A stretch of 64,000 nucleotides of DNA. Origin: Alphaproteobacteria bacterium (GTDB lineage: Bacteria > Pseudomonadota > Alphaproteobacteria > RF32 > CAG-239). The position numbers and the translations under genes were made by a program. Position 1 is the first letter of the stretch. Each line of letters begins with the position of its first letter. Shown piece after piece: positions 4,206 through 59,867 of this stretch. The notes beneath the pieces are model-generated. The model was not told the DNA's origin. It searched no databases and worked only from the letters and a program-made list of their open reading frames with translations. Location: contig JAZSBR010000036.1 in assembly GCA_045602545.1 (NCBI GenBank), forward strand, positions 31,279-95,278, read 5' to 3'.

Positions 4206-5231
4206 CTATTTTTTAAATGTCAAAACCACGAAGTTATCGTTACCATCGTGAAGCCATTGAGCGGCTTCTGCCGGAGTCCAACGTTTTTTGGAAAAAGGAA
4301 GTTGTGAATAACAGTTTCCGTTATAATCGGCATAACCTGCAGAACAACTGATGTTACCGTCATCCGGAATTTCTGTGCAGCCGGTACCTGTATGATAATA
4401 ATAGTAATCATCGCTTTCGGAATGAAGACATTCCTTATGGTCACCGGCATCAAATATAACCTTATCACTATAAACGTTAGCCGCAGTTTCTATATATGCT
4501 TTTATTTTTTCATAACAGCTTTCGGAATTGTTTTTACATTTAAAAATCGTAAAACCTTCATCCCAATCATTTAGAGCATCATTACTCCAACCACTAAAAT
4601 CAAGAGAATTTGGAATAATTATTTCTAAATCACTGTTCGTTCTAAAAGCATTACTATCAATGGTTGTTAATGAGCTTGGAAGTTCTAAGTGAGTTAGAGC
4701 CGATGTCTCAAGGAAGGCATCATTAGCGATGGTCTCTATCATAGGCATATTAACATTGCTTAGAGAGCTTGCACCGGCAAATGTTCCCTCATTGATTATT
4801 TTTACATTTGGCATATCAATACTTGTCAAAGATGATGCTTCCCGAAATGCATATTCTCCGATGGTGGTTAGCGTGTTTGGAATGTCAATATCTGTTAGTA
4901 ATGTTTCTCCGCTAAAAGCATTTTCTCCGATATTTACGACTCCATCACCAATTACAACGCGCGTTACGCCTTGTCTTGCCCAAGGAGCAGAAGTTACCCA
5001 TCCGTTTTCGTATCCGTCGTCCGTTCCGTGAAAAGCATAGGTAACGTAGTAATCATTCATTGTTACATTTCCTGCACCGGTTTTAGCTGAAATCGTTAAA
5101 ATTCCGTCGTCAATTTTCCATAAACAAGTTTCATCTTCATTACAGTAACCTGCAGTATCTATTGCTCTGGCTTCACTTGATATTTCCAAAACAAAAATCA
5201 CTATACTTGCAATTAAAACAAACTTTCTCAT
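4206..5231 (-). CDS. secreted BspA-type leucine-rich-repeat protein with family C-terminal module (paralog 1)
   Basis: Signal peptide MRKFVLIASIVIFVLEISSEARA. LRR_5-like units (IGEYAFREASSLTSIDMP / INEGTFAGASSLSNVNMP…). C-terminus KKRWTPAEAAQWLHDGNDNFVVLTFKK is shared with 5 other ORFs in the window. Confidence 0.85.
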   Translation of the reverse strand: MRKFVLIASIVIFVLEISSEARAIDTAGYCNEDETCLWKIDDGILTISAKTGAGNVTMNDYYVTYAFHGTDDGYENGWVTSAPWARQGVTRVVIGDGVVNIGENAFSGETLLTDIDIPNTLTTIGEYAFREASSLTSIDMPNVKIINEGTFAGASSLSNVNMPMIETIANDAFLETSALTHLELPSSLTTIDSNAFRTNSDLEIIIPNSLDFSGWSNDALNDWDEGFTIFKCKNNSESCYEKIKAYIETAANVYSDKVIFDAGDHKECLHSESDDYYYYHTGTGCTEIPDDGNISCSAGYADYNGNCYSQLPFSKKRWTPAEAAQWLHDGNDNFVVLTFKK

Positions 5232-5498
5232 TTTATTTTCCTTCTTTAAAAATTAAAACTAATTTAGCATAAAAGAAAAATCGCCCCAAAAGGCGACTGG
5301 AAGTTGGAAACTATACTTATCAGATAGTGTGATTTATTCGCAAACCGAGCGGTTTCTTATTTCGTCACCTTCCAATCATACGAATATGACTGAAAATTAA
5401 ACTATCCTCACATAAGGATGGATAAGTATGAGGTTTCCACACCTCCGAGCCTTTTATGCTCATTTCCGATTTTAGCTGATTTTACTATTTAAAGTCAA
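5232..5498 (-). promoter_or_regulatory. class-1 structured leader, copy A, with its promoter
   Basis: Minus strand: TTGACT(5498-5493)-18 nt-TAAAAT(5474-5469), then an RNA starting near GAGCAUAAAAGGCUCGGAGGU and ending in UCGCC/GGCGA hairpin + UUUUUCUUUUAUGCU (plus 5266-5297). It aligns with copies at 23915-24164 and 30889-31125 with compensatory changes. Confidence 0.7.
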
Positions 5499-9972: not shown

Positions 9973-11301
9973 TCACTTCTTAAAAGTAATCACCACGAAG
10001 TTATCGTTTCCGTCATGAAGCCACTCAGCCGCCTCTGCCGGTGTCCAACGTTTTTTGGCGAATGGGTATTCACTCCAGCATTGCTTATCCCACTCAACAA
10101 ATCCGGAAGCGCAAGGAACACTGCCATCAGTGTTTTTTCTTGAGCAGCCGGCACCACTCCAGCCGTAATTACCGGAGCATTGTGAAGGACTGGTTGCCTC
10201 AGAAATGCGGCTTGAATCTATGCAACCACTTGAGCAATTGCATGTCGCATTTGCCGGACATCTTGGATCATCAGCAGAAAAATATTTTGCCAGTTTTTCA
10301 TAACAGGTGTTTAAACCACCTTGGCAAACGATATTTACGCCCTCTGGAAGTTCCCTAAAGACCCGACTGTTCCACCCTTCTGTATTAATATTATCAGGAA
10401 TTATAATACTTTCTAAACCTGAGGCATCATGAAAGGCGCCCTCTCCGATACCTGTAACACCTTCCGGAATCGTGATGCTGGTTAAACCGGTGGCATTATA
10501 AAAGACATTATCTCCGATACCTGTAACACCTTCCGGAATCGTGATGCTGGTTAAACTGCTGGCATTCAAAAAGGCACTACTTCCGATACTGGTAAGCGAA
10601 TCCGGAAGCGTGATGCTGGTTAAACCGCTGGCACTATTAAAGGTATTAATTCCGATACTTGTAACACCTTCCGGAATCGTGATGCTGGTTAAACTGCTGG
10701 CACCATAAAAGGCCTGATCTCCGATTCTGGTAACCGTATTCGGAAGCGTGATGCTGGTTAAACCGCTGGCATTACTAAAGGCACTATTTCCTATTTTAGT
10801 AAAATTACTACTGGAATCAAATGATACGGAAGTTATATTTGGGTTTGCATAAAACGGATGCTTGGTGTCAGCAGTGTCGCCGGAATAATAACCATTAACA
10901 CCACCAACATTTTTCCATTCGTAAACATTCCTGCTCGCCACTTCACCACTACCATATAAAGTTACGGCACCGTCTGTTGTTTGAGTGTAATAACAACTTC
11001 CTCCACAGCTTTTGCACTCCATTGACTCGGCAATACACCCTGTTCCGCAGACTTTCTCTCCGCTTTTGCAACTATCCGCAAAGGCTGTGGATATGTTGAG
11101 GGAAAGGAGGAGGGCAAATGCGGTCATCTTGAGGGTCGAACGAAGTGAGTGCCCGTAAAGATCTCTTTTTGCAGAGTAACATTGCGTTTTAACTCCGTCA
11201 TTGACAACAGACTCTACACTTGCTCCGGAGATCTTGACACCCGCTTCGGGGTTCAAGATGACAGCGGATTTATTTTTTTCATTTTTCTTAATTTCAAACA
11301 T
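9973..11301 (-). CDS. secreted BspA-type LRR protein with family C-terminal module (paralog 2)
   Basis: Six near-identical 23-aa LRRs (LTSITIPEGVTGIGDNVFYNATG…). C-terminus KKRWTPAEAAEWLHDGNDNFVVITFKK. AGGAG SD 8 nt before the ATG at 11301. Hydrophobic signal-like segment MTAFALLLSLNISTAFA begins only at residue 59. Confidence 0.8.
   Translation of the reverse strand: MFEIKKNEKNKSAVILNPEAGVKISGASVESVVNDGVKTQCYSAKRDLYGHSLRSTLKMTAFALLLSLNISTAFADSCKSGEKVCGTGCIAESMECKSCGGSCYYTQTTDGAVTLYGSGEVASRNVYEWKNVGGVNGYYSGDTADTKHPFYANPNITSVSFDSSSNFTKIGNSAFSNASGLTSITLPNTVTRIGDQAFYGASSLTSITIPEGVTSIGINTFNSASGLTSITLPDSLTSIGSSAFLNASSLTSITIPEGVTGIGDNVFYNATGLTSITIPEGVTGIGEGAFHDASGLESIIIPDNINTEGWNSRVFRELPEGVNIVCQGGLNTCYEKLAKYFSADDPRCPANATCNCSSGCIDSSRISEATSPSQCSGNYGWSGAGCSRKNTDGSVPCASGFVEWDKQCWSEYPFAKKRWTPAEAAEWLHDGNDNFVVITFKK
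10380..10800. repeat. tandem 69-bp (23-codon) repeats encoding the LRR units
   Basis: The unit ctccgatacctgtaacaccttccggaatcgtgatgctggttaaac recurs at 10443 and 10512, with diverged copies out to about 10800. Period is 69 bp. Confidence 0.8.
11121..11264. mobile_element. 144-bp nested-palindrome (MITE/RPE-like) element lying in frame in the 5' end of paralog 2
   Basis: Terminal inverted repeats gtcatcttgag…/…ctcaagatgac. Each arm is itself a hairpin (aucuugaGCCCcgaagcGGGCgucaagau). The same element is at 51326-51469, and the arm architecture resembles the element at 40331-40453. Confidence 0.6.
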
Positions 11302-11612
11302 TTTAGTTCTCCTATTAAAAAAGGTTGTTTAAAAATTCAAATGCCCTCTGTTTTTACAGCGGGCGGGGAGTTGAACAATCATGTTGACAGTAATGACTCC
11401 TACATCCTTTAGCATTTAAAAATACTTGTACATACGACATAGGCTCCCCAACCAAAGTGGGGATTTTGGATACAAAAAAACAGCATCCGAGGGACACTGA
11501 TTTAATGTACCTCTGTCAACAAAGAGCCGTTCAAAGCCCCGAACCCGAAGGTTCTTAAAATGATTTTCATCATTCTGCATGGTATGCTAGCAGAAAAAAT
11601 AAAAAATGTAAA
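11302..11612 (-). promoter_or_regulatory. class-2 structured leader, copy E, with its promoter
   Basis: Minus strand TTTACA(11612-11607)-17 nt-TAGCAT(11589-11584). Conserved blocks GAAUGAUGAAAAUCAUU, GAACCUUCGGGUUCGGGGCU, AUCCCCACUUUGGUUGGGGAG, and AACUCCCCGCCCGCUGUAAAAACAGAGGGC + U-rich tail. Confidence 0.7.
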
Positions 11613-11636
11613 GTAAAATGTGTTATGTCAATAAAA

Positions 11637-22552: not shown

Positions 22553-23914
22553 TCATTTCTTGAAAGTCAATATAACGAAGTTATTATCATCATTCAACAA
22601 CGGCGCTGCTTCGGCAGGGGTATATTGAATGCGGTTGCAAAATCCACCCATATCTTTATAACCGGCACCACAGCCATTGGCAGAACTTATGCAAACTCCG
22701 TCTTTGCCTAAATAGCCATCTCCGCAACCCTTGGATTCACTAACACAAAGATTATCCTTTAAATAGAAGCCTGCTCCGCAACCTTCGCCATCTTCTCTGG
22801 CAACACATTCATCACCGACTTGTTTTTCGCCATAACCGCAACCAAGATCTGCAGGGAAACAAGATGGGTAACCACTGCTGTTTGTTCCTGCAATGTAGCC
22901 TTCTTTGCATTCAGTAACACAGACTCCATCTTGTAAAGAATATCCTGTATGACATTTTACACAATAAGCATCAGAACTAGATTCACAAACATCTTGCACA
23001 CATTTTTTTTTATTTTTGTATGCTGTATTTGAAACGACATATCCACTAGGGCATTCTTCTACACATCTACCTTCCATCAAAATAAAATCGCCCGTACATC
23101 TATTACACATACCGCCATATATCCAATTTGAAAGACAGTTTACATCCGTGCAATAATTAAATGTTTTACCAGAATAAGGATAAACATAGTTTCGTGTATT
23201 TTCTTTCTGCAGACATTCTTCTTTCGTTATACACCTTCCTTCAATATTATAATAACCATCTTCACATTCCGAGCATGTTCTTGAATCTGTATATGAACTG
23301 CAATGTTTCATTTCTGCGTATTTTTCCTTTAATAAACAGACACCATTAATTTCCAAATAATATCCGCTGTTACAGCCTGTACATTTACCTGTTGTTGCAT
23401 TATACCATGAGCAACCTTCCGGATTCTTTTTACAATTTCCATTTCCCATATAATACCCGCTATTACAACCACCGCATTTGCCTTCATTCACATTGTACCA
23501 TGAACAATTTTCCGGATTCTTTTTACAAACTCCATTTTCCATATAATATCCGCCTTGACAATAAGCGCATTTTCCACCGCTTACACAAGTACCACAATTT
23601 TCCGAACAATTTGATGAATCTATTATTTCTTCACATTTTCCATTTATCGATTCGTATCCGTCTTTACACTCTTCGCAATAAGTATAGTCATCTTCACAAG
23701 CATCACCATCATCATAACAATTCGAATCCTGACATCTTACACATTTTCCCTCGGCATTATGTCCATATCCTTCATCCGAACAGTCATTGCAATATCCGGT
23801 TTCTTGGTCACATGAATCCTCGCTGTAGCAAGGAGAACTGCCGCACATATAATCTGCATAAACAACTCCAGAAAACAAACTGCTTACACATAACATCAAA
23901 AAAAGCTTTTTCAT
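22553..23914 (-). CDS. secreted cysteine-repeat protein with family C-terminal module (paralog 3)
   Basis: Signal peptide MKKLFLMLCVSSLFSGVVYA. About 60 Cys in repeated C-x2-C…GYY…G-x-C units (e.g. CGGCNSGYYMGNGNCKKNPEGCSWYN). C-terminus NRIQYTPAEAAPLLNDDNNFVILTFKK. Confidence 0.8.
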   Translation of the reverse strand: MKKLFLMLCVSSLFSGVVYADYMCGSSPCYSEDSCDQETGYCNDCSDEGYGHNAEGKCVRCQDSNCYDDGDACEDDYTYCEECKDGYESINGKCEEIIDSSNCSENCGTCVSGGKCAYCQGGYYMENGVCKKNPENCSWYNVNEGKCGGCNSGYYMGNGNCKKNPEGCSWYNATTGKCTGCNSGYYLEINGVCLLKEKYAEMKHCSSYTDSRTCSECEDGYYNIEGRCITKEECLQKENTRNYVYPYSGKTFNYCTDVNCLSNWIYGGMCNRCTGDFILMEGRCVEECPSGYVVSNTAYKNKKKCVQDVCESSSDAYCVKCHTGYSLQDGVCVTECKEGYIAGTNSSGYPSCFPADLGCGYGEKQVGDECVAREDGEGCGAGFYLKDNLCVSESKGCGDGYLGKDGVCISSANGCGAGYKDMGGFCNRIQYTPAEAAPLLNDDNNFVILTFKK

Positions 23915-30888: not shown

Positions 30889-31125
30889 TTGATTTTTAAT
30901 TTTTTTTCTGTTAACATTTTTTTAGAGCATAAAAGGCTCGGAGGTATACGAACCTCTTGCAAATATGTCCTTTCATTAAGGATAGTTTTATTTTCAGTCA
31001 TACTTGTATGGCTGGAAGGTGATGAAATAAGAAGGCATGGCTTTGCGAATAAATCACACTATCTAATTTGCAATAGTTCGTAACTTCCAGTCGCCTTTGG
31101 GGCGATTTTTCTTTTATGCTCAAGT
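30889..31125 (+). promoter_or_regulatory. class-1 structured leader, copy C, with its promoter
   Basis: TTGATT(30889-94)-17 nt-TAACAT(30912-17). RNA runs from AGCAUAAAAG (30926-35) to its complement CUUUUAUGCU (31111-20). UCGCC/GGCGA hairpin + U-tract at 31090-31115. Confidence 0.7.
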
Positions 31126-31380
31126 GGCGTAATTTTTAAGAAAAGGACTGTTAAAATGAACAATGTTTTTAATAGAGTGCAAATGCTCGAAACAAATGAG
31201 AATTGCAATAAATTTTCCAAGAGTGTTTCGTATGAAACACTCGTCGGCGGTACGACGACAATCGGCAGGGAGTATGAACAGAATCAGCGGTTGAGTGAGG
31301 GCAGTGCGGATAAACCGCTTTCGGCGGTCGGCACTTTGACATCGTTGCTGTGCAACTCCGCCAAAGTGGAGGAAAAATGG

Positions 31381-32265
31381 TTGCAAATATCGCCTGTATT
31401 TAGGTTGGCAAAAATTTTTAGCTTAGTGGCGGTTTTATCCGTTGGTATGATGAGCGAATCATGGGCAGACTGTTGGGCTACTGAAAACAATCTGATTAAA
31501 AGCTGCTACAATACCTGGGAACCCGGAAAGCCAGACAATTGCGGAGATGGTTGTACTTATACCTACAATAACGGCAAACTAACCGTAACCGCCACTAAAC
31601 CTGGTGCGGTTATACAGCAAGGTATTTTTGCTCTAAGGTATTATGAGGAAAAAGCTGGTTTTCCCAATATAACTAACGTCGAAATAGCCGGTGAATTTGA
31701 TACTATCGGAGGACATGCTTTTTTGAATAATGCCGCTACCATATCCGGAAAAGGCGGAGTTTTATACACAAATAGCATTGATTATAATGCCTTTGGCAAC
31801 GATAATACTTTAACAGGAACAATAATTGTAAGTGATAAACAAACTACTTTAGGAGAAGGACCTTGGTATAATGCAACTCTAAACGCAACCATGATTCTTC
31901 CTCCGACAATTAAATCCATTTCCGGTTGGGCTCTTTATGGTTTGAATTTAGGCTCAAATGCCAAAATTTATTGCGGAGTTGAAAATTGCGAAGAATTGTT
32001 CAGTAATGTTAATTGTGATGCAATCGATGAACAATATTCGACACGGTGTAAAAATAACTTAAACACATTACTTTCTTCCGGTAAATTGCTTGCCTATCCC
32101 GACGGTTGCACGAAAATGGGCGCCTCGGGTTGCACAAAATGCAAAAACGAAAACTTCAAATTAAACGATGGTGAATGCGACCGCTTACGCTATACTCCTG
32201 CCGAGGCGGCGGAGGTGCTGACTGATGATAATAATAACAGTGTGACGATTACGTTTAGAAAGTAA
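31381..32265 (+). CDS. secreted LRR-like protein with family C-terminal module (paralog 4); ORF-track start 31156 probably too far upstream
   Basis: In-frame TTG at 31381 sits 8 nt after GGAGG and yields a classical signal peptide (M)QISPVFRLAKIFSLVAVLSVGMMSESWA. C-terminus DRLRYTPAEAAEVLTDDNNNSVTITFRK. Degenerate BspA-like repeats. Confidence 0.7.
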   Translation: MQISPVFRLAKIFSLVAVLSVGMMSESWADCWATENNLIKSCYNTWEPGKPDNCGDGCTYTYNNGKLTVTATKPGAVIQQGIFALRYYEEKAGFPNITNVEIAGEFDTIGGHAFLNNAATISGKGGVLYTNSIDYNAFGNDNTLTGTIIVSDKQTTLGEGPWYNATLNATMILPPTIKSISGWALYGLNLGSNAKIYCGVENCEELFSNVNCDAIDEQYSTRCKNNLNTLLSSGKLLAYPDGCTKMGASGCTKCKNENFKLNDGECDRLRYTPAEAAEVLTDDNNNSVTITFRK

Positions 32266-39355: not shown

Positions 39356-40288
39356 TTGCGATGTGTTTATTCGTTCAATGCCGATGAAAAATTGCTTGCC
39401 GTTATAAAACAATGGCAGTCTTGGCTTTTGAATGAACGTCGTTTTTCCGCGCACACGCTTGACGGATATTCTCGCGATTTATCGTGTTTTTTGCAGAATA
39501 TTTTCAAAACGCCGGCAACCATCAATGACTTGCAAAATTTGGAAGTTCGCGATTTTCGGCGCTTTATTTTTTCGCGTTCGGCTGAAAATATTGAAAAATC
39601 ATCATTGGCGCGCGAGCTTTCTTCAATAAAGAATTTTTATAAATGGCTGAGCAGGGAAAACATCGTGAAAAACTCGGCGATTTCGGTTATATCAACTCCG
39701 CGTCGTCCCAAAACTCTACCAAAAGCCCTTGATGTTGACGATTCGTTTGACGTTATAACCGAGGCAAAAAATATGGCGATTAACGAGTGGCAGGGCTTGC
39801 GTGATCGGGCGATATTAACGCTGTTATACGGTTGCGGGTTGCGTATTTCCGAGGCCTTGGGCTTGAATATCGGCGATATCAATGAAAAAAGTGAAACACT
39901 TCGCATAAAAGGTAAAGGCAATAAGGAGCGCATTGTTCCACTGTTACCGATTATCTGGAAAAATATTGATTTATATTTGCAAAAATGCCCTTATAAATTA
40001 AGTGTGGGTGAACCATTGTTTTTGGGCGCGCGCGGAGAGAGAATAACCGCCAGAGTTGTCCAAAGGCAAGTTAAAAAACTGCGCCTTTATTTGGGTTTGC
40101 CGGACACTTTTACACCGCACGCTTTGCGCCATTCGTTTGCCACTCAATTGCTGGAGCAAGGAACGGATTTACGCTCACTGCAAGAACTTTTGGGGCATTC
40201 ATCATTGATGACCACGCAACGTTATACGGAAGTCAAAATTGAAACTTTGCAGAAAGAATACCACAAAGCCCACCCGCTTGAAAAATAA
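39356..40288 (+). CDS. xerC: tyrosine site-specific recombinase XerC/XerD type
   Basis: TTG start. …RRFSAHTLDGYSRDLSCFL…, catalytic …GLRISEAL…, …HALRHSFATQLLEQGTDLRSLQELLGHSSLMTTQRYTEV. Confidence 0.8.
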   Translation: MRCVYSFNADEKLLAVIKQWQSWLLNERRFSAHTLDGYSRDLSCFLQNIFKTPATINDLQNLEVRDFRRFIFSRSAENIEKSSLARELSSIKNFYKWLSRENIVKNSAISVISTPRRPKTLPKALDVDDSFDVITEAKNMAINEWQGLRDRAILTLLYGCGLRISEALGLNIGDINEKSETLRIKGKGNKERIVPLLPIIWKNIDLYLQKCPYKLSVGEPLFLGARGERITARVVQRQVKKLRLYLGLPDTFTPHALRHSFATQLLEQGTDLRSLQELLGHSSLMTTQRYTEVKIETLQKEYHKAHPLEK

Positions 40289-40294
40289 GCCTTA

Positions 40295-40454
40295 TTTTTT
40301 TTCTGTCATTCCGAGGAGCGTTTTTTTTCTGTCATTCCGAGGAGCGAAGCGACGTGGGAATCTCCATGCATCAAGTGACTCATAAAAAATAGGCATCATT
40401 ATCACATACGGGACTCGCTCAAAGAGATTCCCACGCCTTCGGCTCGGAATGACG
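40295..40454. repeat. intergenic nested-palindrome (MITE-like) element with a perfect 26-bp tandem duplication at its left end
   Basis: ttttttttctgtcattccgaggagcg occurs at 40295-40320 and again at 40321-40346. Left arm gtcattccgaggagcgaagcgacgtgggaatctc (40331-40364) is inverted at 40424-40453 (gagattcccacgccttcggctcggaatgac). Confidence 0.75.
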
Positions 40455-40656: not shown

Positions 40657-43600
40657 ATGAAATATTCTAGAACTGCCCTTGGTTTATTGAATGCACAATA
40701 TCGCAGTGTGTTGCGTAAGTGCTTTTTGATAAACATGGGGCTTTTTGCGTTAGGCGCAATTGCCACTCCGGCGAAGGCTGAATATACTACAGTTGATTTA
40801 TCAACAGTATATCCAAGCGGAACAGCAACTGAAACTTTGAAGTACAAGGATGCTACAAATCAAAGCACTAAATATGTTTGGGACGCTGAAAACATAGTTA
40901 TTAGCCCAACGGCAGGTGATAGCAGAGGTATTGACTTAGGTAACATAAGTTATAATGGAAGTGAACCTTACATTATGGATATAGGTGGTGAGAATACTGA
41001 AAGTATTACTATTACTCCGACAAACGGATATGCCATAACTGTATTCAAAGAGAGTGAACTAAACTTGGAAGCTGATGAAATAACGGTTAATGGTATAGTC
41101 CATGCTTCCGATAATACAATGGCTGATTTGGCTAAACATGCGACGGTTAATATTAAAGGTGGTGAGGTTGTTTTAAATGCTGACACTACCTATAAAACTG
41201 CTGTTGAAGCTATGAGTCAAGGTATTGTTAATATTGAAGGCGATACGACAATTACTGGTGACAAGGCAATTTTATCCCGTGGTAACGCTCAAATTAACGT
41301 TAATACAAATAATAACGACAATAAAACTGTTATCAATGGTGATATTGTTTTTGATTATGATCAAGATACTTCGGGTTCTCCAATTGATGCATATGTCAAC
41401 GTCAATTTGAATGGAGAAGATTCGTCTTGGACCGGTAATACATACGTTGATTGGAATACCAAGCCTGAAGAAAGTAAGTTGAATGTTACAAAGTCAACTA
41501 TTACTTTGAGTGATGGTGCCACTTGGAATGCTACAAAAATTGAAAACAATGATGTAGCCACTGATGGTAGCCGTTACACTTCAATCAATAACCTCAACGT
41601 TGATGGTGGTAATGTTAAGTTTAATGAAGCCGGTGCGCAGGTTCAAATTGATAACTTAAAAGTTGGCGCTGATGGTGTAAATGTTACTAAAAATGCTGAT
41701 TCAGATAGAATAGAAGTAAAAACAACAGCTGATTTACGTAATGGTGTATCTGATAGTTATGCCGATATTATCAATGTAAATGATGGTGCTAGTCTTTATG
41801 TTGATGCTGATGCAAGTGGTAATCTTGATGCTGTTGGTGGTAATAAGGAATACATCAAACTTGAAGGTGTTACTTTATTGTCTGCTATGAATTCCGGATC
41901 AACCATTAACACTGCAGGATATGACTTATCATCAGGTAATGCTGCAAAATCATTGGGAGTATATTATGCTGATACTTCAACCGATGGTTCCGGTAACATT
42001 GTTTTAGGTACTAAGCAATCATATACTGACCTTATCGGTATTGAGCAGAATGGTAACTACATCAAAGCTTATAATGCTGCTGATGCTGAAAACACATCTG
42101 TTTCAGCTAACCTGAGCGCATTAGATAATCAAGTTTTTGAAAATGAAACAAACATTGCTCAAAACACAGCTGATATTGCAACAAACACAGATGCGATTGC
42201 ACAAAATACTGCTGCTATTGCCGGTAAGCAAGATACTTTGTCTGAAGCACAGTTGGCAGCAGCTAACTCTGGTATTGATTCAACTAAAGTATCAACCTAC
42301 GATGGTTATGCTGCTCAAATCAGTGCAAAAGCTGATGTGGCAACAACTTATACAAAAGATGAAGTTAATGCTTATGTTGCTGACAATGCCGTTCAAACTG
42401 TTACAACAGGTACAGCCAATGGCACTATTTCTGTTGATGGCTCAAATGTTGCGGTTAAAGGCTTAGGCTCTGCTGCTTATACAGAATCTTCTGCTTATGC
42501 AACAGCGGCTCAAGGCACATTGGCAGAAACTGCAGTTCAGAGCGTTGTTAAAGGTGATAACAACGGTGAAATTAAAGTTGATGGCACAACAATTAAAGTT
42601 TATGATGATGCTGCTCTTCAAGCTGCAGTTGAAGCTGCGCAAACAACAGCTACTAATGCACAATCTACAGCAACTGCTGCTCAGACTGCTGCAAGCACGG
42701 CTAATAGTAAAGCCACTACTGCACAATCTACAGCAACAGCTGCTCAAACTGCTGCCGCTGCCGCTCAAACAGCTGCTAATACTGCCCAATCAACAGCTGA
42801 AGCTGCTCAAACTGCTGCAAGCACAGCTGATGGTAAGGCGGTTGCAGCTCAATCTGCTGCTACTGCCGCTCAAACGACAGCAAATACGGCTGTGACAAAT
42901 GCAGCCTCAGCTCAATCTGCTGCTGAAGCTGCGCAAACAGCTGCTGATACTGCTAATTCAACAGCAAATGCAAATAAGACAGCTATTACAACCTTGAATG
43001 GCAGTGCAAGTCAAACAGGTTCTGTAGCAAATTCTATTGCAACAGCTTTGACATCATACAGCACAACAGATCAAATGAACAGTGCAATCAGTACAGCTAT
43101 TTCAAACGCTGCTTCAAACTATGATGCAGCAGGTTCTGCTGCTACAGCTGAGCAAAATGCAAAAGATTATGCTGATGGTGCTATAGCTGATGAAGTTACT
43201 GCTCGTAACACAGCTATTGGTGCAGCTAAAACTGAAATTTTAGCCGGTACAGGTTATGCCGGTTCTGGTTTGGAAACTGCAGTTGCTGGTACAGCTAATG
43301 CTCAAATTACTGCTTCTTTGAATGGCACAGATGCCGGCACAATCGGAAAAGCTATTTCTGATGCACAAGCTGCTGCTGAAGCTACCGCTGCTACTGCACA
43401 AGATACGGCTGATGCTGCATTATTGAATGCAGGTGGTGCTGCTTCTGCTGCTGCCGCTGCTCAAACAACAGCCAACCAAGCTAAAACAGCTGCTGAAAAT
43501 GCTCAGACTTCAGCTGATGCAGCTAAGGCATCTGCTGATGCTGCACAAGTTACTGCCGATACAGCAATAGCAAATGCAGGTGGTGCTGCTTCTGCTGCTG

Positions 43601-46600
43601 CCGCTGCTCAAACAACAGCCAACCAAGCTAAAACAGCTGCTGAAAATGCTCAAAGCACAGCTGATACTGCTGTCGCAAATGCCGCAACTGCACAAGACAC
43701 AGCTAATGCTGCATTATTGAATGCAAGTGGTGCTGCTTCTGCTGCTGCCGCTGCTCAAACAACAGCCAACCAAGCTAAAACAGCTGCTGAGGTTGCTGAT
43801 GGTAAAGCCGTTGCAGCTAAAGCATCTGCTGATGCAGCCCAAGTTACAGCTGATACAGCAATAGCAAATGCAAGTGGTGCTGCTTCTGCTGCTGCCGCTG
43901 CTCAAACAACAGCTAATCAGGCAAAAGACAGAGCAGATCATGCTTATGCATTGGCTGAAAAAGCAGAAGGTGATGCCGCACAGGCTCAAACAGCTGCTAA
44001 TCACGCACAAGACACTGCTAATGAAGCAAAAGAGGCTGTCGGTGATGTTTCTAAATTTGCTCAAAGCACAACAGGCAATATCTCTAACTCTGTTCCTGGT
44101 TCAGGTACAAATGCAACCAACGCTTCTGCTGCTATCGCCAATATAGACGCTACAATCGGTCAAATCCATGGCTTGGCTTCTACTATTACCGATGCTGCAG
44201 GTGCTAAAAACTTAGAGCAAGGCTCAACAGTAAGCGGTCACTTGCTTGCTTTAGCAGCTTCTATCGGTAACAGAACTGATTATACCGGTGCAAATTATCT
44301 TGTAAATAACCAAGATATTGCTACATCACTTACTGTTTTGGATACCGCTATCGGCAATGCTGAAGATAAGAATGATATTCAAGATAATTCTTTGTCAGAC
44401 ATCTATGGCAAGTTGAACGGTGGTAATTATAATAAGACTACCGGTGCTGTTACAGATGCAACTGCTTTATCAACAAACTTCACAGCTACTAATGTTACAG
44501 CTGCTGCAAATGAGTTGTTGACAGATATCACAGTAACCGCTGATGGTAACTACATTACAGCCGGTGCTGATGTTAAAGGCAATTTGAGTGCTTTGGACGG
44601 TCAAGTTAAGGACAATGCCGATAATATCGCTTCAACAATGGCTTTGGTCGGTACAACTTCCGCACCGAAGACGGGTCATGGCATCTTAGCTGGCAAGACC
44701 ATTACTGGTACTGCCGGTACAGATAACCTCAATATGGTTGATGCCATTGATTTTGTCGCTGCCAATGCGGCCGGCTTGAATGTGGATAATGTTTACTCCG
44801 GTAAAAATACATTCGGTACAACATCAGGTAGCCAAGTTATCATTGATAACGGCGGCAACTTGACGGTTAACCATGATTTGACAATCGGTAAAGCAAACGC
44901 TATCAGCAGCACAGCAACCGGCAAATTGGATATGGGTGGCAACACATTGCTCAATGTCCAAGGCTTGACCTTGACAGACGGCTCAGGCCACACAGCAACG
45001 TTGGCAGCTACCGAAAACGGTATCAACACCGGAAACGCTGACCTTGACGTTGGTACAGGTGCTTTAAAATCTCAAACTTTGTATGTCGGTACAACGGATC
45101 AATTCTCAGTTGACGGATCAGGTAATGTCAGTACATCAGGTACATTGGATGTGACGGGTAAAGCAACTGTCGGCTCACTTGATATCGGTACAACAGGCAA
45201 GGGCTTTGATGCAACCGGCAACTTGACTGCAGGTACAATCAATGCAACTGGTATCGACACCACAACTGCCAATACAGTTAAACTCGGTGGTACAGGCTTT
45301 ACAACGGCTGTTACCGGCGATATGACGGTCAGCGGTACGACGACTTTGACTGATTTGACCGTGACGGGTGATACCACTTTGGATGACTTGACGGTCAACG
45401 GTAATACGAGTTTGAAAAATACTACCGTGGACGGTACTTTGGAAGTAACCGGTGGTGCTATATTCGGTGATAAGACAGATCAATTTGTTGATATCACGGA
45501 TGGTGCTATTACCGTTCATGATGGTACAGGTTCAACCAATATCACAGCAAGTATTGCCAACAATGGCAATATCACAACCAAAGGTGCTTTAGAGGTGGCA
45601 GGTCTTGCTTCACTCAACGGTGGCATCAATGTCAATGACAAGTTTGAAGTTAGCGGTACAGATGGTACGGTTACATTAACCAACGGTACAAACACTGCTT
45701 CTATTGCTATGACTGACGTTAAGGTTGCGACGGATGATCCGCTCAATCCTGAATCTGTTACTAATGTTATGAAAGTAACGGGAACAGGTTTGTTTACGGG
45801 TGATGTTGTTTCTGAGTCTGGATTTACTATTGCTCAGAAGAATGGTGTCGATCAGTATGAAGTTAAATTCTCTGTTGATGACGATGGCAATATCGATACA
45901 TTAGGTACATTGTCTGTTGCCGATGACAAATTCACGGTTGACGGTTCAGGCAATATGTACGCCGCAGGTGATGCTGATATCGACGGCGACTTGTCAGTTG
46001 GTGATAAGTTCAGCGTAACTTCTGCTGGTGGTTCGTTCAGCGCAGCTGGTGGTGAATTTAAAGTCGATGGTGACGGAAATACCAAAATAAAAGGTGCAAT
46101 GGCCGCCGGTAAAACAGGTACGGAATTTAAAGTCGGCTTAAGCGGTAACATCTCTGCCGCGTCAGGCAACTTTACTGTTGATAAAGACGGTAACGTAACA
46201 GCTCAGGGTGACTTGGGTGTGTATGGTACATCTTGGTTGAAAAACACCAATGTTGATGGTGCTTTGGCTGTGACAGGTGATACAACTGTTGGTCAGAACT
46301 TCGCCGTTGCCGGTAATTCATACTTGCACAACACTTCTGTTGACGGCGCTTTAGCTGTTACAGGTACATCTTGGTTGAAAAACACCAATGTTGATGGTGC
46401 TTTAGCTGTGTCAGGTGATTCTACAGTTGGTCAGAACTTCGCTGTTGCCGGTACTTCTTACTTGCATAACACTGTTGTTAATGGTGATATGGCTGTTAGC
46501 GGAACAACAAAGACAACTGCTTTGACATTTAATGGTGAAAGCTATGTTGCCGCTATGGATCAAGGCGATGCCGCTATTACTAACGGTACTGTTGATGATC

Positions 46601-47679
46601 AGGCTAAACGTACAATGGCTACAAATGCAACTGTTGCCAAGACGGTTGGCAATTTGAATTCATTGACCACAGCCGCTAACGGCGTTACCAGTGCAAACGA
46701 TGTTGCTGATGCAATCAACAGCTTGGGAACAAACGTTGAAACCGCTACCGGCGGAACTTTCGCAGCTAACGGTGTATGGACAGGCAGTATAGACGGTAAA
46801 GTTGACGATGGTACAGGTTCGTTGGTTGATAGAGCCGTTGCTTATGGCACAATCACTGATAATAATATCTTAGATGTTGTTGATAGCTTGTATGCTAATG
46901 TTGGCAATACTGCTGTTACCGGTACAAACGATAATATCTTGAGCACAAATACGGTTAACCAAAACTTAGATCGTATTGACTCTAAGATTGGCGATATCAG
47001 AACTTTGAATGGTAATGCCTTGAATAAAGGTACGACAACTCAGCCGACAACCGTTGTTGCTGCTTTGCAGAACATTAACGACTCTATCGGTAAAGTTCAT
47101 GGCTTGTATGATGGTTCAACTGTTAACAGCACAACTGTTGCTTCAACAGTTAACGGAAACTCTAACTTGATGGCTGTTGCCGGCGGTGTTTCTACTGCTG
47201 AAGACCATTTGGTAAGCTTAGATAACGCTATCGGTGACAGAACATTGGTAAGCAAAAATACGGCTATCAATGATGCAATGAGCGGCGAATCTGTTGCTTC
47301 CGGTTTGAAAGCTGCCGGTGATGCAATTGGTGATATGAACTTCACTGGTTCTCACTATGTTGCAGGCAACAACGACTTGTCCGGTGCTGTAAGAAGCTTG
47401 GATAGCAACCTCTATCGTGTTGAATCTGATTTGCGTGATTTAAGACGCGACTTCAGACGCGGTATGGCTTCTATGTCTGCTATGTCTGCTTTGGTTCCTA
47501 ACCCGAGAGCTCACGGAAATACTTCGCTTGCTATCGGTACAGGTGCTTATGACGGTCATACAGCTGCTGCTATCGGTGGTTTCCACTATCTCACAGACAA
47601 CATTATGCTTAATGCCGGTGTGGCTTGGGGTAACTCCAGCGACGCTGCATATCGCATGGGTGTAACGTTCTCTTGGTAA
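40657..47679 (+). CDS. trimeric autotransporter adhesin (YadA-type C-terminal anchor), 2340 aa
   Basis: Long signal region MKYSRTALGLLNAQYRSVLRKCFLINMGLFALGAIATPAKA, Ala/Thr/Gln-rich coiled-coil stalk repeats, and C-terminal …MASMSAMSALVPNPRAHGNTSLAIGTGAYDGHTAAAIGGFHYLTDNIMLNAGVAWGNSSDAAYRMGVTFSW (YadA anchor pattern ending in an aromatic residue). Confidence 0.9.
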   Translation: MKYSRTALGLLNAQYRSVLRKCFLINMGLFALGAIATPAKAEYTTVDLSTVYPSGTATETLKYKDATNQSTKYVWDAENIVISPTAGDSRGIDLGNISYNGSEPYIMDIGGENTESITITPTNGYAITVFKESELNLEADEITVNGIVHASDNTMADLAKHATVNIKGGEVVLNADTTYKTAVEAMSQGIVNIEGDTTITGDKAILSRGNAQINVNTNNNDNKTVINGDIVFDYDQDTSGSPIDAYVNVNLNGEDSSWTGNTYVDWNTKPEESKLNVTKSTITLSDGATWNATKIENNDVATDGSRYTSINNLNVDGGNVKFNEAGAQVQIDNLKVGADGVNVTKNADSDRIEVKTTADLRNGVSDSYADIINVNDGASLYVDADASGNLDAVGGNKEYIKLEGVTLLSAMNSGSTINTAGYDLSSGNAAKSLGVYYADTSTDGSGNIVLGTKQSYTDLIGIEQNGNYIKAYNAADAENTSVSANLSALDNQVFENETNIAQNTADIATNTDAIAQNTAAIAGKQDTLSEAQLAAANSGIDSTKVSTYDGYAAQISAKADVATTYTKDEVNAYVADNAVQTVTTGTANGTISVDGSNVAVKGLGSAAYTESSAYATAAQGTLAETAVQSVVKGDNNGEIKVDGTTIKVYDDAALQAAVEAAQTTATNAQSTATAAQTAASTANSKATTAQSTATAAQTAAAAAQTAANTAQSTAEAAQTAASTADGKAVAAQSAATAAQTTANTAVTNAASAQSAAEAAQTAADTANSTANANKTAITTLNGSASQTGSVANSIATALTSYSTTDQMNSAISTAISNAASNYDAAGSAATAEQNAKDYADGAIADEVTARNTAIGAAKTEILAGTGYAGSGLETAVAGTANAQITASLNGTDAGTIGKAISDAQAAAEATAATAQDTADAALLNAGGAASAAAAAQTTANQAKTAAENAQTSADAAKASADAAQVTADTAIANAGGAASAAAAAQTTANQAKTAAENAQSTADTAVANAATAQDTANAALLNASGAASAAAAAQTTANQAKTAAEVADGKAVAAKASADAAQVTADTAIANASGAASAAAAAQTTANQAKDRADHAYALAEKAEGDAAQAQTAANHAQDTANEAKEAVGDVSKFAQSTTGNISNSVPGSGTNATNASAAIANIDATIGQIHGLASTITDAAGAKNLEQGSTVSGHLLALAASIGNRTDYTGANYLVNNQDIATSLTVLDTAIGNAEDKNDIQDNSLSDIYGKLNGGNYNKTTGAVTDATALSTNFTATNVTAAANELLTDITVTADGNYITAGADVKGNLSALDGQVKDNADNIASTMALVGTTSAPKTGHGILAGKTITGTAGTDNLNMVDAIDFVAANAAGLNVDNVYSGKNTFGTTSGSQVIIDNGGNLTVNHDLTIGKANAISSTATGKLDMGGNTLLNVQGLTLTDGSGHTATLAATENGINTGNADLDVGTGALKSQTLYVGTTDQFSVDGSGNVSTSGTLDVTGKATVGSLDIGTTGKGFDATGNLTAGTINATGIDTTTANTVKLGGTGFTTAVTGDMTVSGTTTLTDLTVTGDTTLDDLTVNGNTSLKNTTVDGTLEVTGGAIFGDKTDQFVDITDGAITVHDGTGSTNITASIANNGNITTKGALEVAGLASLNGGINVNDKFEVSGTDGTVTLTNGTNTASIAMTDVKVATDDPLNPESVTNVMKVTGTGLFTGDVVSESGFTIAQKNGVDQYEVKFSVDDDGNIDTLGTLSVADDKFTVDGSGNMYAAGDADIDGDLSVGDKFSVTSAGGSFSAAGGEFKVDGDGNTKIKGAMAAGKTGTEFKVGLSGNISAASGNFTVDKDGNVTAQGDLGVYGTSWLKNTNVDGALAVTGDTTVGQNFAVAGNSYLHNTSVDGALAVTGTSWLKNTNVDGALAVSGDSTVGQNFAVAGTSYLHNTVVNGDMAVSGTTKTTALTFNGESYVAAMDQGDAAITNGTVDDQAKRTMATNATVAKTVGNLNSLTTAANGVTSANDVADAINSLGTNVETATGGTFAANGVWTGSIDGKVDDGTGSLVDRAVAYGTITDNNILDVVDSLYANVGNTAVTGTNDNILSTNTVNQNLDRIDSKIGDIRTLNGNALNKGTTTQPTTVVAALQNINDSIGKVHGLYDGSTVNSTTVASTVNGNSNLMAVAGGVSTAEDHLVSLDNAIGDRTLVSKNTAINDAMSGESVASGLKAAGDAIGDMNFTGSHYVAGNNDLSGAVRSLDSNLYRVESDLRDLRRDFRRGMASMSAMSALVPNPRAHGNTSLAIGTGAYDGHTAAAIGGFHYLTDNIMLNAGVAWGNSSDAAYRMGVTFSW
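43429..43930. repeat. four tandem 147-bp (49-codon) repeats inside the adhesin stalk
   Basis: gca(g/a)gtggtgctgcttctgctgctgccgctgctcaaacaacagc… begins at 43429, 43576, 43723 and 43870 (exact 147-bp period). Encodes …GGAASAAAAAQTTANQAKTAAENAQ…. Confidence 0.85.
46225..46500. repeat. two tandem 138-bp (46-codon) repeats in the adhesin
   Basis: ggtacatcttggttgaaaaacaccaatgttgatggtgcttt… at 46225 and 46363. Encodes GTSWLKNTNVDGALAV.GD.TVGQNFAVAG.SYLHNT. Confidence 0.8.
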
Positions 47680-50390: not shown

Positions 50391-51503
50391 TTATTTTTTG
50401 AAGGTAATCACTACAAAATTATCGTTGCCGTCATGAAGCCATTTACTTGCTTCCGCCGGTGTCCAGCGCTTCTTTGAAAAAGGTAATTGAGCATAGCAAT
50501 TTCCGTTATAATCGGCATAACCGCTGGCACAAGTTATATTCCCGCTTTCCGGTAATTCGGCACATTCTGTTCCGGTATGGTAATAACTGACATTTTCGCT
50601 ATCACGAGGTGTGTTAAAACATTCTTTGTGATCATCGGCATCAAAGATAATATTGTTACCGCTGATATAAGAAGCTCTTGCGGCAAATTCTGCTATTTTT
50701 TCTTTGCAAATTTCCTGATTTCCTTTGCATTTGAATGTAACAGTTCCATTATCAGAATTATCATTTAAGGCATCATCGTCCCAACCGCTCATATCAATAG
50801 AATCAGGAATAATAATTTCAATATCACCATACGTACGAAGCGCATCACCATCAGTCCAAACAAGAGAATCAGGAATCTCTAAGGTTCGTAAATTATAAGC
50901 ATCACAAAGTGCAAGATTTCCAAGTTTTTCTATTTTTGGCATATTCACGCTTGTTAAAGCATTAGCAGCTTCAAAAGCATAGGCTCCTAATTCAGTAACG
51001 TTCGGCAATTCCACTGTGGTTAAACTCTGCAAATTATCAAAACACTCATCTTCAATAGTGGTTATATTATTGGTGTTTAGTGTTGTTAAATTAGGGACAT
51101 TATCAAAAGTTTCACGAGCGAGAGCCGTAATATTATCACCAAACTCAATTTCGGTTATTTTTTCTTGTTGGTCTCCCCAAGCAATTTCATTATCGTCATC
51201 ATCGTATACCGAATCGCAGCCGGAAAACTCTCCACTTCCATCGATAATCAGCTTTGTTCCTTCCCAAGTGCAGGTTGTTTCTGCAAAGGCTGTGGACAAG
51301 TTGAGGGAAAGAAGGAAGGCAAGGACTGTCATCTTGAGGGTCGAACGAAGTGAGGGCCCGTAAAGATCTCTTTTTGCAGAGTAACATTGCGTTTTGGCTC
51401 CGTCATTAACAACAGGCTCTACACTTGCTCCGGAGATCTTGACGCCCGCTTCGGGGCTCAAGATGACAGCGGATTCATTTTTTTCATTATTTATATCAAA
51501 CAT
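50391..51503 (-). CDS. secreted BspA-type LRR protein with family C-terminal module (paralog 5)
   Basis: C-terminus KKRWTPAEASKWLHDGNDNFVVITFKK. The N-terminal 57 aa are near-identical to paralog 2 and contain the 144-bp palindromic element. Signal-like MTVLAFLLSLNLSTAFA follows. AGGAG SD before the ATG at 51503. Confidence 0.8.
   Translation of the reverse strand: MFDINNEKNESAVILSPEAGVKISGASVEPVVNDGAKTQCYSAKRDLYGPSLRSTLKMTVLAFLLSLNLSTAFAETTCTWEGTKLIIDGSGEFSGCDSVYDDDDNEIAWGDQQEKITEIEFGDNITALARETFDNVPNLTTLNTNNITTIEDECFDNLQSLTTVELPNVTELGAYAFEAANALTSVNMPKIEKLGNLALCDAYNLRTLEIPDSLVWTDGDALRTYGDIEIIIPDSIDMSGWDDDALNDNSDNGTVTFKCKGNQEICKEKIAEFAARASYISGNNIIFDADDHKECFNTPRDSENVSYYHTGTECAELPESGNITCASGYADYNGNCYAQLPFSKKRWTPAEASKWLHDGNDNFVVITFKK
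51326..51469. mobile_element. second copy of the 144-bp nested-palindrome element, in frame in paralog 5
   Basis: ctgtcatcttgagggtcgaacgaagtgagggcccgtaaagatctc … gagatcttgacgcccgcttcggggctcaagatgacag. Collinear with 11121-11264 apart from a few substitutions. Confidence 0.6.
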
Positions 51504-51828
51504 TTCAGTTCTCCTATTAAAAAAGGTTGTTTTTAAAATTTAAATGCCCTCTGTTTTTACAGTGGGCGGGGAGTTCAGAAATCATACAAGAAGAAATGAC
51601 TGTTAAGATCTTTAGCTATAAGCCTGAACATACACCTTAACCTCCCCATCCAATGCGGGGATTTAAAACCAAAAAAAGCGCCTTCAACCTATACCAAAAA
51701 AGGATAAGCAGAAAAGACACCATTTGGGTATCTTCTTGTAAGAGCCTCTGACAGCCCCGAACCCGAAGGTTCTGAAATGATTTTCATCATTCTGTTCATA
51801 AACTAGCAGAAAAAATAAAAAATGTAAA
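51504..51828 (-). promoter_or_regulatory. class-2 structured leader, copy F, with its promoter
   Basis: Minus strand TTTACA(51828-23)-17 nt-TAGTTT(51805-00). Same conserved blocks as copies D and E. Terminator-like GCCCACUGUAAAAACAGAGGGC (plus 51546-51567) + U-rich tail. Confidence 0.65.
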
Positions 51829-51868
51829 GAAAAAAAATCACAATGGTTTATTATATAACCTTTGCTCA

Positions 51869-59015: not shown

Positions 59016-59867
59016 ATGAAAAAACTAATTTTATTAACGAGTGTAGCTATATTGTGCTTATTAAATGTATCCGAATCATCGGCAGATGATGAAATAAACT
59101 GTCTAACCGGACAACAATCATGCGGAACAAATTGTTGCTGGTCGGTGGAAAATAAAAAGCTGACTATAACCGGCGGTGCCGACGGTTCCATCGGTACTAT
59201 GGATGATTACGATAATGCTTCTGGAGGAGAAGGACACAATACTCAATGGACAGGTCTAGATATAAGAGCAATTTATGTGTCAGGTTTGGAAAATATTGGG
59301 ATTCAAGCATTCCGAGATTTAAAAAAAGTCACAAATATAACCATAGGCGATTCGGTCGAGCGTGTTAGTAATGCTGCGTTTGATAATGATTATATGTTGC
59401 AATATGTTGATTTTGGTGATGCTGTAATAAGCATTGGAGAATATGTTCTCCAAGATACTCCGAGACTCATACAAATCATTGTCCCTGATACCTTGAATGA
59501 TATAGCTCTGCAATCTTTCGGGAATGGAGATCTTGTCGGAAGAAATATTCAAATAATCTGTCGTGGAGATAAAGTGTCTTGTTCGAATATTTATGAAAAA
59601 CTGTCTGAATATTCATCTAAAAAAGGACAAACATATGACGCAACAAGTCAATTGTTTTACGCAAATTATGAGCAGTGTGCCTCAACAAGCTATTTTTGGG
59701 ATGGAGCAAAATGCGTGCGTGAGCCGGATTTAAGCAAACGCAAGTGTTGCTCATCATGCAAAGATATGGGAGGATGGTGCAATCGCATTCAATATACCCC
59801 TGCAGAAGCCGCACCGTTGTTGCATAACGACAACACAAATGAAGTGACGATTACTTTCAAGAAGTGA
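59016..59867 (+). CDS. secreted BspA-type LRR protein with family C-terminal module (paralog 6)
   Basis: Signal peptide MKKLILLTSVAILCLLNVSESSA, LRR_5-like units, C-terminus NRIQYTPAEAAPLLHNDNTNEVTITFKK. Confidence 0.85.
   Translation: MKKLILLTSVAILCLLNVSESSADDEINCLTGQQSCGTNCCWSVENKKLTITGGADGSIGTMDDYDNASGGEGHNTQWTGLDIRAIYVSGLENIGIQAFRDLKKVTNITIGDSVERVSNAAFDNDYMLQYVDFGDAVISIGEYVLQDTPRLIQIIVPDTLNDIALQSFGNGDLVGRNIQIICRGDKVSCSNIYEKLSEYSSKKGQTYDATSQLFYANYEQCASTSYFWDGAKCVREPDLSKRKCCSSCKDMGGWCNRIQYTPAEAAPLLHNDNTNEVTITFKK

Follow-up and report, generated by a model that had tools for sequence, protein, structure and literature searches.

A probably translated palindromic repeat ahead of the signal peptide in leucine-rich repeat genes of an uncultured gut alphaproteobacterium

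How can a gene accommodate a long palindrome between its start codon and its signal peptide? Two genes raise this question in a 64,000-nt stretch of contig JAZSBR010000036.1 (positions 31,279 to 95,278; assembly GCA_045602545.1), which we refer to as the window. The contig comes from an uncultured alphaproteobacterium of lineage RF32/CAG-239, and its GroEL shares 94-96% identity with proteins named 'MAG: Alphaproteobacteria bacterium'. The two genes are on the minus strand and encode BspA-type leucine-rich repeat (LRR) proteins (open reading frame [ORF] 9973..11301, 442 aa, paralog A; ORF 50391..51503, 370 aa, paralog B); paralog A is deposited at NCBI as a 442-aa protein (P0030). An initial annotation of the window had described a 144-nt element lying in frame between start codon and signal peptide of both genes, and we found it at 11121-11264 (copy A, encoding AVILNPEAG...SLRSTLKMT) and 51326-51469 (copy B), both on the minus strand. 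The two copies were 95% identical over 144 nt (blastn, E = 6e-62), and blastn detected no third copy in the window. The explanation we favour, with a probability of about 0.58, is that the element is a selfish dimer of repetitive extragenic palindromic (REP) sequences that is translated within a leader removed by processing.

In both genes the order in gene sense is the Shine-Dalgarno (SD) sequence AGGAG, 7 nt, an ATG, 11-12 A-rich codons (MFEIKKNEKNKS in paralog A, MFDINNEKNES in paralog B), the element and the signal peptide. For paralog A these parts lie on the minus strand at 11309-11313 (SD), 11299-11301 (ATG), 11266-11280 (A-rich left flank GAAAAAAATAAATCC) and 11077-11127 (signal-peptide-like segment MTAFALLLSLNISTAFA, followed by D and without K or R between its M and the hydrophobic core). 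The corresponding positions for paralog B, also on the minus strand, are 51511-51515 (SD AGGAG), 51501-51503 (ATG), 51471-51485 (A-rich flank) and 51282-51332 (signal-peptide-like segment MTVLAFLLSLNLSTAFA). An internal ATG without SD sits inside the terminal stem of each copy (11125-11127 and 51330-51332, minus strand). The element begins with CTGTCATCTTGA... and ends with ...TCAAGATGAC, and the terminal inverted repeats CTGTCATCTTGA(G/A) and CTCAAGATGAC(A/C)G are present in both copies, so that the initial description of the termini and of the two ATGs is borne out.

Copies A and B each folded into a single long imperfect hairpin (ΔG -54 and -56 kcal/mol; z = -3.9 and -3.7), and none of 200 shuffled sequences folded as well as the real element. 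Only one of the six reading frames through the window element was open, the one in which both the upstream ATG and the signal peptide lie. We ruled out an attC site, a tRNA-derived sequence and a CRISPR or tandem repeat, as well as a terminator, as a T-run after the hairpin is absent. At the gathering threshold Rfam returned only RNase P, and at a permissive threshold nothing credible over element or leader.

Related metagenomic bacteria contained eight further DNA copies (loci L001-L006, L012 and L013) and 12 fused proteins, showing that the element is not confined to the two duplicates in the window. A word-indexed protein search with the 49-aa peptide yielded six ORFs of 60-69 aa in ENA gut metagenomes; it overlooked P0030 and all 12 fused proteins, and its negatives therefore do not equal absence. 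With a profile built from eight peptides, an exhaustive search of 1.84 billion protein representatives gave 17 true matches, and there the peptide occurred solely at N-terminal positions, in LRR paralogs and in one prepilin-like protein. Two internal profile matches (P0023, P0024) were chance matches to repeats and were discarded. The fused proteins comprised 11 LRR paralogs and one unrelated prepilin-like protein of 284 aa (P0021, whose DNA locus is L012). The extension occupied residues 1 to ~64 in 10 of the 11 LRR relatives, the N-terminus of the remaining one (P0020) being cut by the contig end. The neighbours of the L013 gene include Rick_17kDa_Anti and BamE genes. Since the A-rich flank accompanied the 144-nt dimer in 10/10 DNA copies, whatever lay upstream, the repeated unit is ~160 nt rather than 144 nt long.

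Other searches were negative. An invariant 22-mer had 0 matches in a genome-contig collection that does not include the source lineage, and the LRR family profile found no relatives there. A 20-mer had five matches in JGI metagenome contigs, all by chance and inside unrelated genes. We found no match to the element in plasmid and phage collections (blastn) or in viral contigs (pattern scan). A full-text literature search for the terminal sequences returned only unrelated primers, and generic LRR_5 proteins from Bacteroidota dominated an LRR family search meant to sort the N-termini into classes.

The 10-copy alignment, together with a scan for hairpins beside GTCAT, revealed that the element is a head-to-head dimer of two inverted hairpin units with their tags facing outward. 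Each unit consists of a tag (C/T)GTC, a stem ATCTTGA beginning with A-T, a GC-rich insert of 12-25 nt, the complementary stem TCAAGAT and a tail CTC. The 5' arm of copy A (11228-11264, minus strand) reads tag CTGTC, stem ATCTTGA, a CCCG-AAG-CGGG clamp and loop, stem TCAAGAT and tail CTC. It is followed by a moderately conserved spacer of ~62 nt with small stems of its own (11166-11227, minus strand) and by the inverted unit of the 3' arm (11121-11165, minus strand) with tail GAG, stem ATCTTtA, loop GGGCACTCACTTCGTTCGACCC, stem TCAAGAT and tag GACCG. The arms of copy B lie at 51433-51469 (5') and 51326-51370 (3'), minus strand. Each arm had been proposed to be a hairpin in itself; this is clear for the 5' arm alone, while the 3' arm alone formed a weaker hairpin.

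The tag of the 5' arm was TGTC in 10/10 copies; in the 3' arm GTC was invariant and the fourth base variable (CGTC, TGTC, GGTC, AGTC). Every stem was followed by an invariant CTC, which pairs with the GAG of the other arm in the long-hairpin fold. The outer stem measured 7 bp in this subfamily and 8 bp in two arms of sister subfamilies, with 12-25 nt enclosed; a loop of 3-4 nt was found only in variant 1 of the 5' arm, after the inner CCCG/CGGG clamp. Sister subfamilies carry the same tag (TGTC, CGTC or GGTC) and tail on stems that are self-complementary but different: ATTCC/GGAAT, ATTATCGG/CCGATAAT and ATACTCGG/CCGAGTAT, the latter two in the second module of L006. A half-module in L013 has the stem ATTCTGAG.../...AGAAT.

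One sister REP dimer lies in the window itself, in an intergenic region on the plus strand (40303-40454; CTGTC-ATTCC...GGAAT-CTC ... GAG-ATTCC...GGAAT-GACG; ΔG -54, z -3.8). The dimer proper spans 40329-40454 and is head-to-head, and its first 26 nt are tandemly duplicated at 40303-40328. We conclude that the element is part of a hairpin superfamily that retains pairing, tag and tail but changes its stem sequence. The stems of the intergenic dimer resemble those of Neisseria dRS3 (ATTCCC..GGGAAT). This dimer is located between a gene for a XerC/D-like recombinase (39356-40288) and a gene for a 2340-aa YadA-type autotransporter (40657-47679).

Which property of the element is maintained? Stems and tags were invariant in 10/10 DNA copies while inserts and loops varied, and conservation was maximal exactly at the base-paired segments. 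The closing pair of the inner hairpin in the 5' arm covaried (G-C in five copies, A-U in four). Each arm exists in two variants, and all four left/right combinations occurred. The long 5' arm has +8 nt before the invariant GTCAAGATCTC and +1 nt after it, and this segment is read as VKIS behind the short and as VSRS behind the long 5' arm. Where all copies share the frame, 9 variable columns fell on first, 7 on second and 4 on third codon positions, and thus no third-position excess of variation was seen. Because the same DNA is read in two frames and a third-position excess is absent, the encoded peptide is not under selection. It varies where the stems are invariant, which is not the behaviour of a conserved propeptide.

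The frame itself was kept. The ten copies measured 144, 144, 144, 147, 147, 153, 147, 153, 147 and 156 nt, all multiples of 3, and frame 0 was stop-free in 10/10, with one to four stops in each of the other two sense frames; most of these relatives were reached via protein searches, which detect open frames only. The two window copies, and L001 and L006 as reconstructed without their insertion sequence (IS), are free of this bias. The open frame and the multiple-of-3 length noted initially for the two window copies hence extend to the whole DNA set. Additional modules were likewise open and in register (L006, L013, P0009, P0011, P0012, P0015, P0017). These data point to selection for an open frame. 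Taken together, two constraints are superimposed: the stems are conserved at the DNA or RNA level and the frame stays open, with the peptide free to vary.

The next question is whether the palindrome was inserted into existing genes. Two leader types, here called class 1 and class 2, occur upstream of LRR genes in the window and in relatives. Behind class-1 leaders, the start codon with its SD occupies a homologous position in the element-free paralog 4206..5231 (MRKFVLIAS...) and in the element-bearing loci L012 and L003 (MNKLF-EKNKS-element). As the same position is used in both forms, the upstream ATG has the appearance of the original start, and the palindrome that of an insertion a few codons further on, within the leader peptide. 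An element-free counterpart behind a class-2 leader, already pointed out in the initial annotation, is the third LRR paralog 59016..59867 (plus strand): it has the same leader of ~330 nt and begins directly with its own signal peptide, MKKLILL (comparison site 58745-59035, plus strand). An out-of-frame ATG in AATGAAAAAAAT was considered as ancestral start and rejected, as it is absent from L003, L012 and L013 and in the wrong frame for a 144-nt insertion.

Presence or absence of the element was independent of the leader class; the element also precedes the unrelated prepilin-like gene (P0021/L012), different modules adjoin it in L006 and L013, and a sister dimer is intergenic. All four observations support insertion. 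Modules were stacked at the DNA level in L006 and L013 (93 nt) and in the proteins P0009, P0011, P0012, P0015 and P0017, with one to three modules and up to ~170 aa before the hydrophobic core. Frequent transposition, on the other hand, is not what the copies suggest: all of this subfamily share the 15-nt A-rich left flank and their relative position, we found no target duplication or flanking direct repeat in the 10 copies, and Pfam showed no RAYT, Y1_Tnp or IS200-like transposase among 30 window proteins. A miniature inverted-repeat transposable element (MITE) would combine terminal inverted repeats, a target-site duplication and a parent IS sharing its ends; the palindrome has terminal inverted repeats of 12-13 bp, and the only IS associated with it, the IS110 element described below, has unrelated ends. 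Most of the spread can be put down to gene duplication and to recombination among paralogs.

Further support for the repeat nature of the palindrome came from a transposable element inserted in it at a fixed point. Five loci (L001, L003, L004, L005 and L006), which differ in leaders, arms and downstream sequences, carried the same IS110 element at the identical point between CTCAAGAT and GAC. In copy A this point lies in the 3' arm, as does the internal ATG. The IS110 element is 1153-1154 bp long and encodes a DEDD_Tnp_IS110/Transposase_20 protein (L001:255-1407, L004:235-1387, L006:241-1394; left ends at L003:815 and L005:859). Its junctions read CTCAAGAT followed by TGTTAG... and ...CTGGATTGAT followed by GAC. 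It has no terminal inverted repeats itself, and its ends are unrelated to the palindrome. The interruption explains the 'orphan' ORFs of 60 aa in related metagenomes, which end in ..LKIVS and a stop.

The 5' non-coding end of the IS110 element folded into a stem-loop (z = -4.4). On the 5' side of its internal loop we found CUCGAGAU, which has the same sense as the left target CTCAAGAT and includes one G-T, and on the 3' side UUGUCAU, the reverse complement of the right target ATGACAA. Bridge RNAs have this layout, with left and right target guides (LTG and RTG) in a loop (PMC11208160). The right terminus of the palindrome is thus a predicted programmed target of an IS110-family element. REPs (IS621 of E. 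coli) and dRS3 (Nf1 prophage of Neisseria) are known targets of this family (PMC11208160, PMC7058167), and the case described here resembles them in that one fixed position of a repeat is used and the loop shows an LTG/RTG-like arrangement. It differs in its apparent core, AT (or GAT) in place of CT, and in that the site is within a coding region, so that insertion splits the gene between extension and signal peptide. In L002 (1-150), another IS110-type transposase gene adjoins a class-2 leader with its 3' end and takes the place of the first hairpin of that leader; this hairpin may be the target of a second IS110 element.

How would the host genes then tolerate the repeat? In our preferred explanation, translation from the upstream ATG would run through the palindrome and give a cytoplasmic pre-signal extension of 58 aa or more. 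The element is N-terminal of a predicted signal-peptidase site of the type AFA|D in the LRR proteins and of a prepilin site G|R in P0021/L012. The extension would be tolerated since everything N-terminal of the signal-peptidase or prepilin-peptidase site would be absent from the mature protein, and this position would explain both tolerance and stacking: the stretch before the cleavage site would be a safe harbour in which repeats survive and accumulate. Selection would act solely on keeping the frame open. The repeat would have spread mainly by LRR gene duplication and by recombination between copies, which would account for the mosaic arms, and it would have reached an unrelated gene at least once. 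This explanation assigns the element no regulatory role; in its behaviour it is closer to a Rickettsia palindromic element (RPE) than to a novel type of system.

Several observations weigh against this explanation. All copies of the subfamily are found in a single homologous niche, so that one ancient insertion and later gene duplication would account for most of the data, with no need for ongoing mobility. The window of 64 kb holds only three dimers, and loop and stem lengths are outside those of the published families of CGTC-tagged REPs. Frame maintenance is partly an ascertainment effect of the protein searches. Sec signal peptides do not usually follow an extension of 58-170 aa, which might interfere with export. 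Many REPs annotated at the 5' ends of ORFs are probably untranslated (PMC3733652). An internal start would give the prepilin-like protein a classic short leader, MTERG followed by RSMIEML with E at +5, and downstream initiation fits this leader equally well. In addition, two cassettes (L002, L004) stop after 5-8 codons and have no gene downstream. These orphan cassettes of leader, start and palindrome (L002:276-485; L004:38-247 and its IS-free continuation) are perhaps leftovers of rearrangements.

Alternatively, the palindrome could be an untranslated or regulatory 5' leader that tunes mRNA stability or translation, the real start being the ATG at the right terminus and the upstream frame either being open by chance or belonging to a leader ORF that opens the hairpin when it is translated. 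We regard this as unlikely. In its favour, every module ends in ATGAC and so places an in-frame ATG directly before the hydrophobic core, the 5-aa leader MTERG is canonical for a prepilin-like protein, the hairpin is stable (z about -3.8), the long structured leader with two terminator-like hairpins makes layered RNA control plausible, and many N-terminal REPs have been argued to act post-transcriptionally rather than to code (PMC3733652). The internal ATG, however, has no SD, though the upstream ATG and the element-free paralogs use one, and it is paired within the invariant 10-bp outer stem. The hairpin starts 36 nt downstream of the upstream ATG and is therefore too distant to hinder initiation there. 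Signal peptides beginning at MT would all be without a charged n-region: 12/12 element-bearing ones have no K or R after MT and take the sole positive charge near the core from the terminal stem (..LK or ..LR directly before MT), whereas 3/3 canonical element-free paralogs begin with MKK or MRK. No stop separates the upstream ORF from the internal ATG, which excludes classical coupling or re-initiation. Moreover, an untranslated hairpin needs neither lengths in multiples of 3, nor the compensated +8/+1 indels, nor stop-free frames in 10/10 copies. The distance of the hairpin, the buried internal ATG without SD and the compensated indels also make it unlikely that the palindrome controls the choice of start, which the initial annotation had offered as one of two alternatives. 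We infer that initiation at the upstream ATG and read-through are more probable than an internal start. At the other extreme, the extension could be a family-specific N-terminal domain or propeptide selected for its amino-acid sequence, with the DNA palindrome incidental. It is restricted to the N-terminal ends of related secreted proteins, with one and the same frame in every case, and most copies keep a central YSAKRDLYG motif. Arm swaps, on the other hand, give unrelated peptides (EAGVKISGAS vs ERSEWVSRSHVT; PSLRSTLK vs DFAYAQPLK vs ARSPKGSRLK), and some relatives have their central part translated in the +1 frame (LRHTLKRSLRA), the register being restored before ...LKMT. Added to the reading of identical invariant DNA in two frames, the missing third-position excess, the conservation peaks at paired segments and the absence of a Pfam match to the extension, this makes a selected propeptide very improbable, and we reject it.

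Could the element be a recombination site? It might swap cassettes of promoter, leader and start, or insertion and excision of IS110 might reversibly switch surface genes on and off, resulting in antigenic or phase variation. The IS110 family is related to Piv invertases. All four arm combinations exist, the element occurs behind both leader classes, L002 and L004 are cassettes without genes, IS110 sits exactly at the junction of element and signal peptide in five loci, and BspA-type LRR surface proteins are present in many paralogs. Excision of IS110 elements is scarless (PMC11208160). Yet the window contains no matching recombinase or IS110, and there are no inverted partner sites to either side of a promoter or gene; the IS110 element looks like an ordinary autonomous IS on a repeat that serves as landing pad, like IS621 on REPs or Nf1 on dRS3, and mosaic arms are equally explained by homologous recombination between paralogs. 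We therefore consider a dedicated recombination site distinctly improbable. A broader version, in which the pre-signal stretch of adhesin genes is a dedicated docking zone where REP modules build up and stay translatable, the modules provide homology or IS110 sites for reshuffling or switching BspA-type LRR proteins, and the extension modulates export, also seems improbable to us; if true, a selfish repeat would have been co-opted into a variation system.

These loci extend the RPE phenomenon, the carriage of palindromic repeats in frame, beyond Rickettsia to an uncultured gut alphaproteobacterium, and suggest a reason for tolerance, namely insertion into the part of the precursor that is removed. 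In the 442-aa and 370-aa gene models the annotated start is probably right, and the leader would be repeat-derived and non-functional. The 'hypothetical proteins' of 60-70 aa in related metagenomes are the same cassette cut by IS110. The apparent pairing of an IS110 bridge RNA with a CGTC-type repeat would add a natural target class for this recombinase family.

The leaders upstream of the element have features of their own. The class-2 leader (~330 nt) precedes LRR genes at 11332-11613 (minus), 51535-51829 (minus) and 58745-59015 (plus) and in L005:330-685 and L013:400-716. It comprises a promoter-like TTTACA-N17-TAGCAT, a strongly conserved core with GAAA and UUCG tetraloop hairpins (AGAAUGAUGAAAAUCAUUU..GAACCUUCGGGUUCGGGGCU), then a hairpin that resembles a terminator and has a T-run, another hairpin and a second terminator-like hairpin directly before the SD; in L013 the latter has another sequence at the same place. 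This leader had no Rfam match and could be an undescribed cis-regulatory RNA or attenuator. The class-1 leader (5232-5470, minus; 30925-31155, plus; L012:300-545, L003:440-644, L004:1-56) includes GTCATATTCGTATGGCTGGAAGGTGATGAAATAAGA... and has a terminator-like CGCC-TTTGG-GGCG with a T-run at its end. It precedes other LRR paralogs and the prepilin-like gene, with or without the palindrome.

The six paralogs of the window are BspA-type LRR_5 proteins or share a C-terminal ..YTPAEA..TFKK module. This module of ~30 aa, ..(R/Q)(W/Y)TPAEA..L.D.N.N.V..TF(K/R)K, is common to six ORFs (9973-10062, 50391-50480, 4206-4295, 59778-59867, 32176-32265 and 22553-22642), including one for a cysteine-rich furin-like-repeat protein without LRR; no Pfam model covers it, and it may serve in sorting or anchoring. 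The LRR paralog 31156..32265 has an unrelated pre-signal extension of ~85 aa (31156-31410, plus strand; structured RNA, z = -2.9) that holds a perfect 9-bp hairpin at 31221-31242. Its close metagenomic relative P0010 has a REP dimer at that place instead.

To which known repeats is the element related? REPINs are GTAG-tagged REP doublets mobilised by RAYT, a Y1 HUH transposase. The element resembles them in having two inverted short hairpin repeats and a spacer that can fold as two hairpins or as one long hairpin. It differs in its tag (TGTC rather than GTAG) and in the absence of a RAYT or IS200-like gene from the window.

A closer fit is provided by the CGTC REPs. These are defined by an unpaired CGTC tag (or TGTC/CCTC) and a stem of 8-9 bp whose first two positions are A-T; they have loops of 4-5 nt and a 3-nt tail, mostly CCA, and form mainly head-to-head dimers with spacers of 20-100 bp (PMC3733652). 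They occur mostly in Alphaproteobacteria as dispersed families of tens to thousands of copies per genome, have no known dedicated transposase and include occasional intragenic in-frame copies (PMC3733652). Our element shares the tag, the A-T start of the stem, the position of the 3-nt tail, the head-to-head dimer with a conserved spacer of ~62 nt, the fold into a single long hairpin, several stem subfamilies in one genome, intragenic in-frame copies, the lack of a transposase gene alongside and the alphaproteobacterial host. It departs from them in its 7-bp outer stem (published: 8-9 bp), in enclosing 12-25 nt with a second GC clamp instead of a loop of 4-5 nt, in its tail CTC instead of CCA, in the constant 15-nt A-rich flank and in that the known copies of the subfamily are all at 5' ends of genes. 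As tag, A-T start, tail position, dimer and host agree and stem and loop lengths do not, we would file the element as a long-loop variant of the CGTC/TGTC REP kind rather than as one of CGTC-1 to -4 or a named RPE family.

This placement also bears on the parallel with RPEs, which the initial annotation had drawn. CGTC-1 and CGTC-4 of R. conorii correspond to RPE-6 and RPE-4, and Neisseria dRS3 to CGTC-1 (Di Nocera et al. 2013, PMC3733652); copies of RPE-1 at NH2 termini are reported to be expressed (PMC3733652). The parallel holds in that a palindromic repeat is carried in frame and has the tag, stem and tail layout of the superfamily that includes RPE-4 and RPE-6, a link that is based on the tag and stem rules of PMC3733652. 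RPEs (RPE-1 and relatives; Ogata et al. 2000/2002, as summarised in PMC10969869 and PMC3733652) are likewise palindromic repeats of ~100-150 bp that preserve the ORF in an alphaproteobacterium and encode a peptide without evident function. The parallel does not extend to spread: RPEs are described there as scattered in many unrelated housekeeping genes and at internal positions, whereas the repeat reported here resides in two gene families, in every case within the pre-signal or leader stretch that processing would take off, and its modules stack in tandem.

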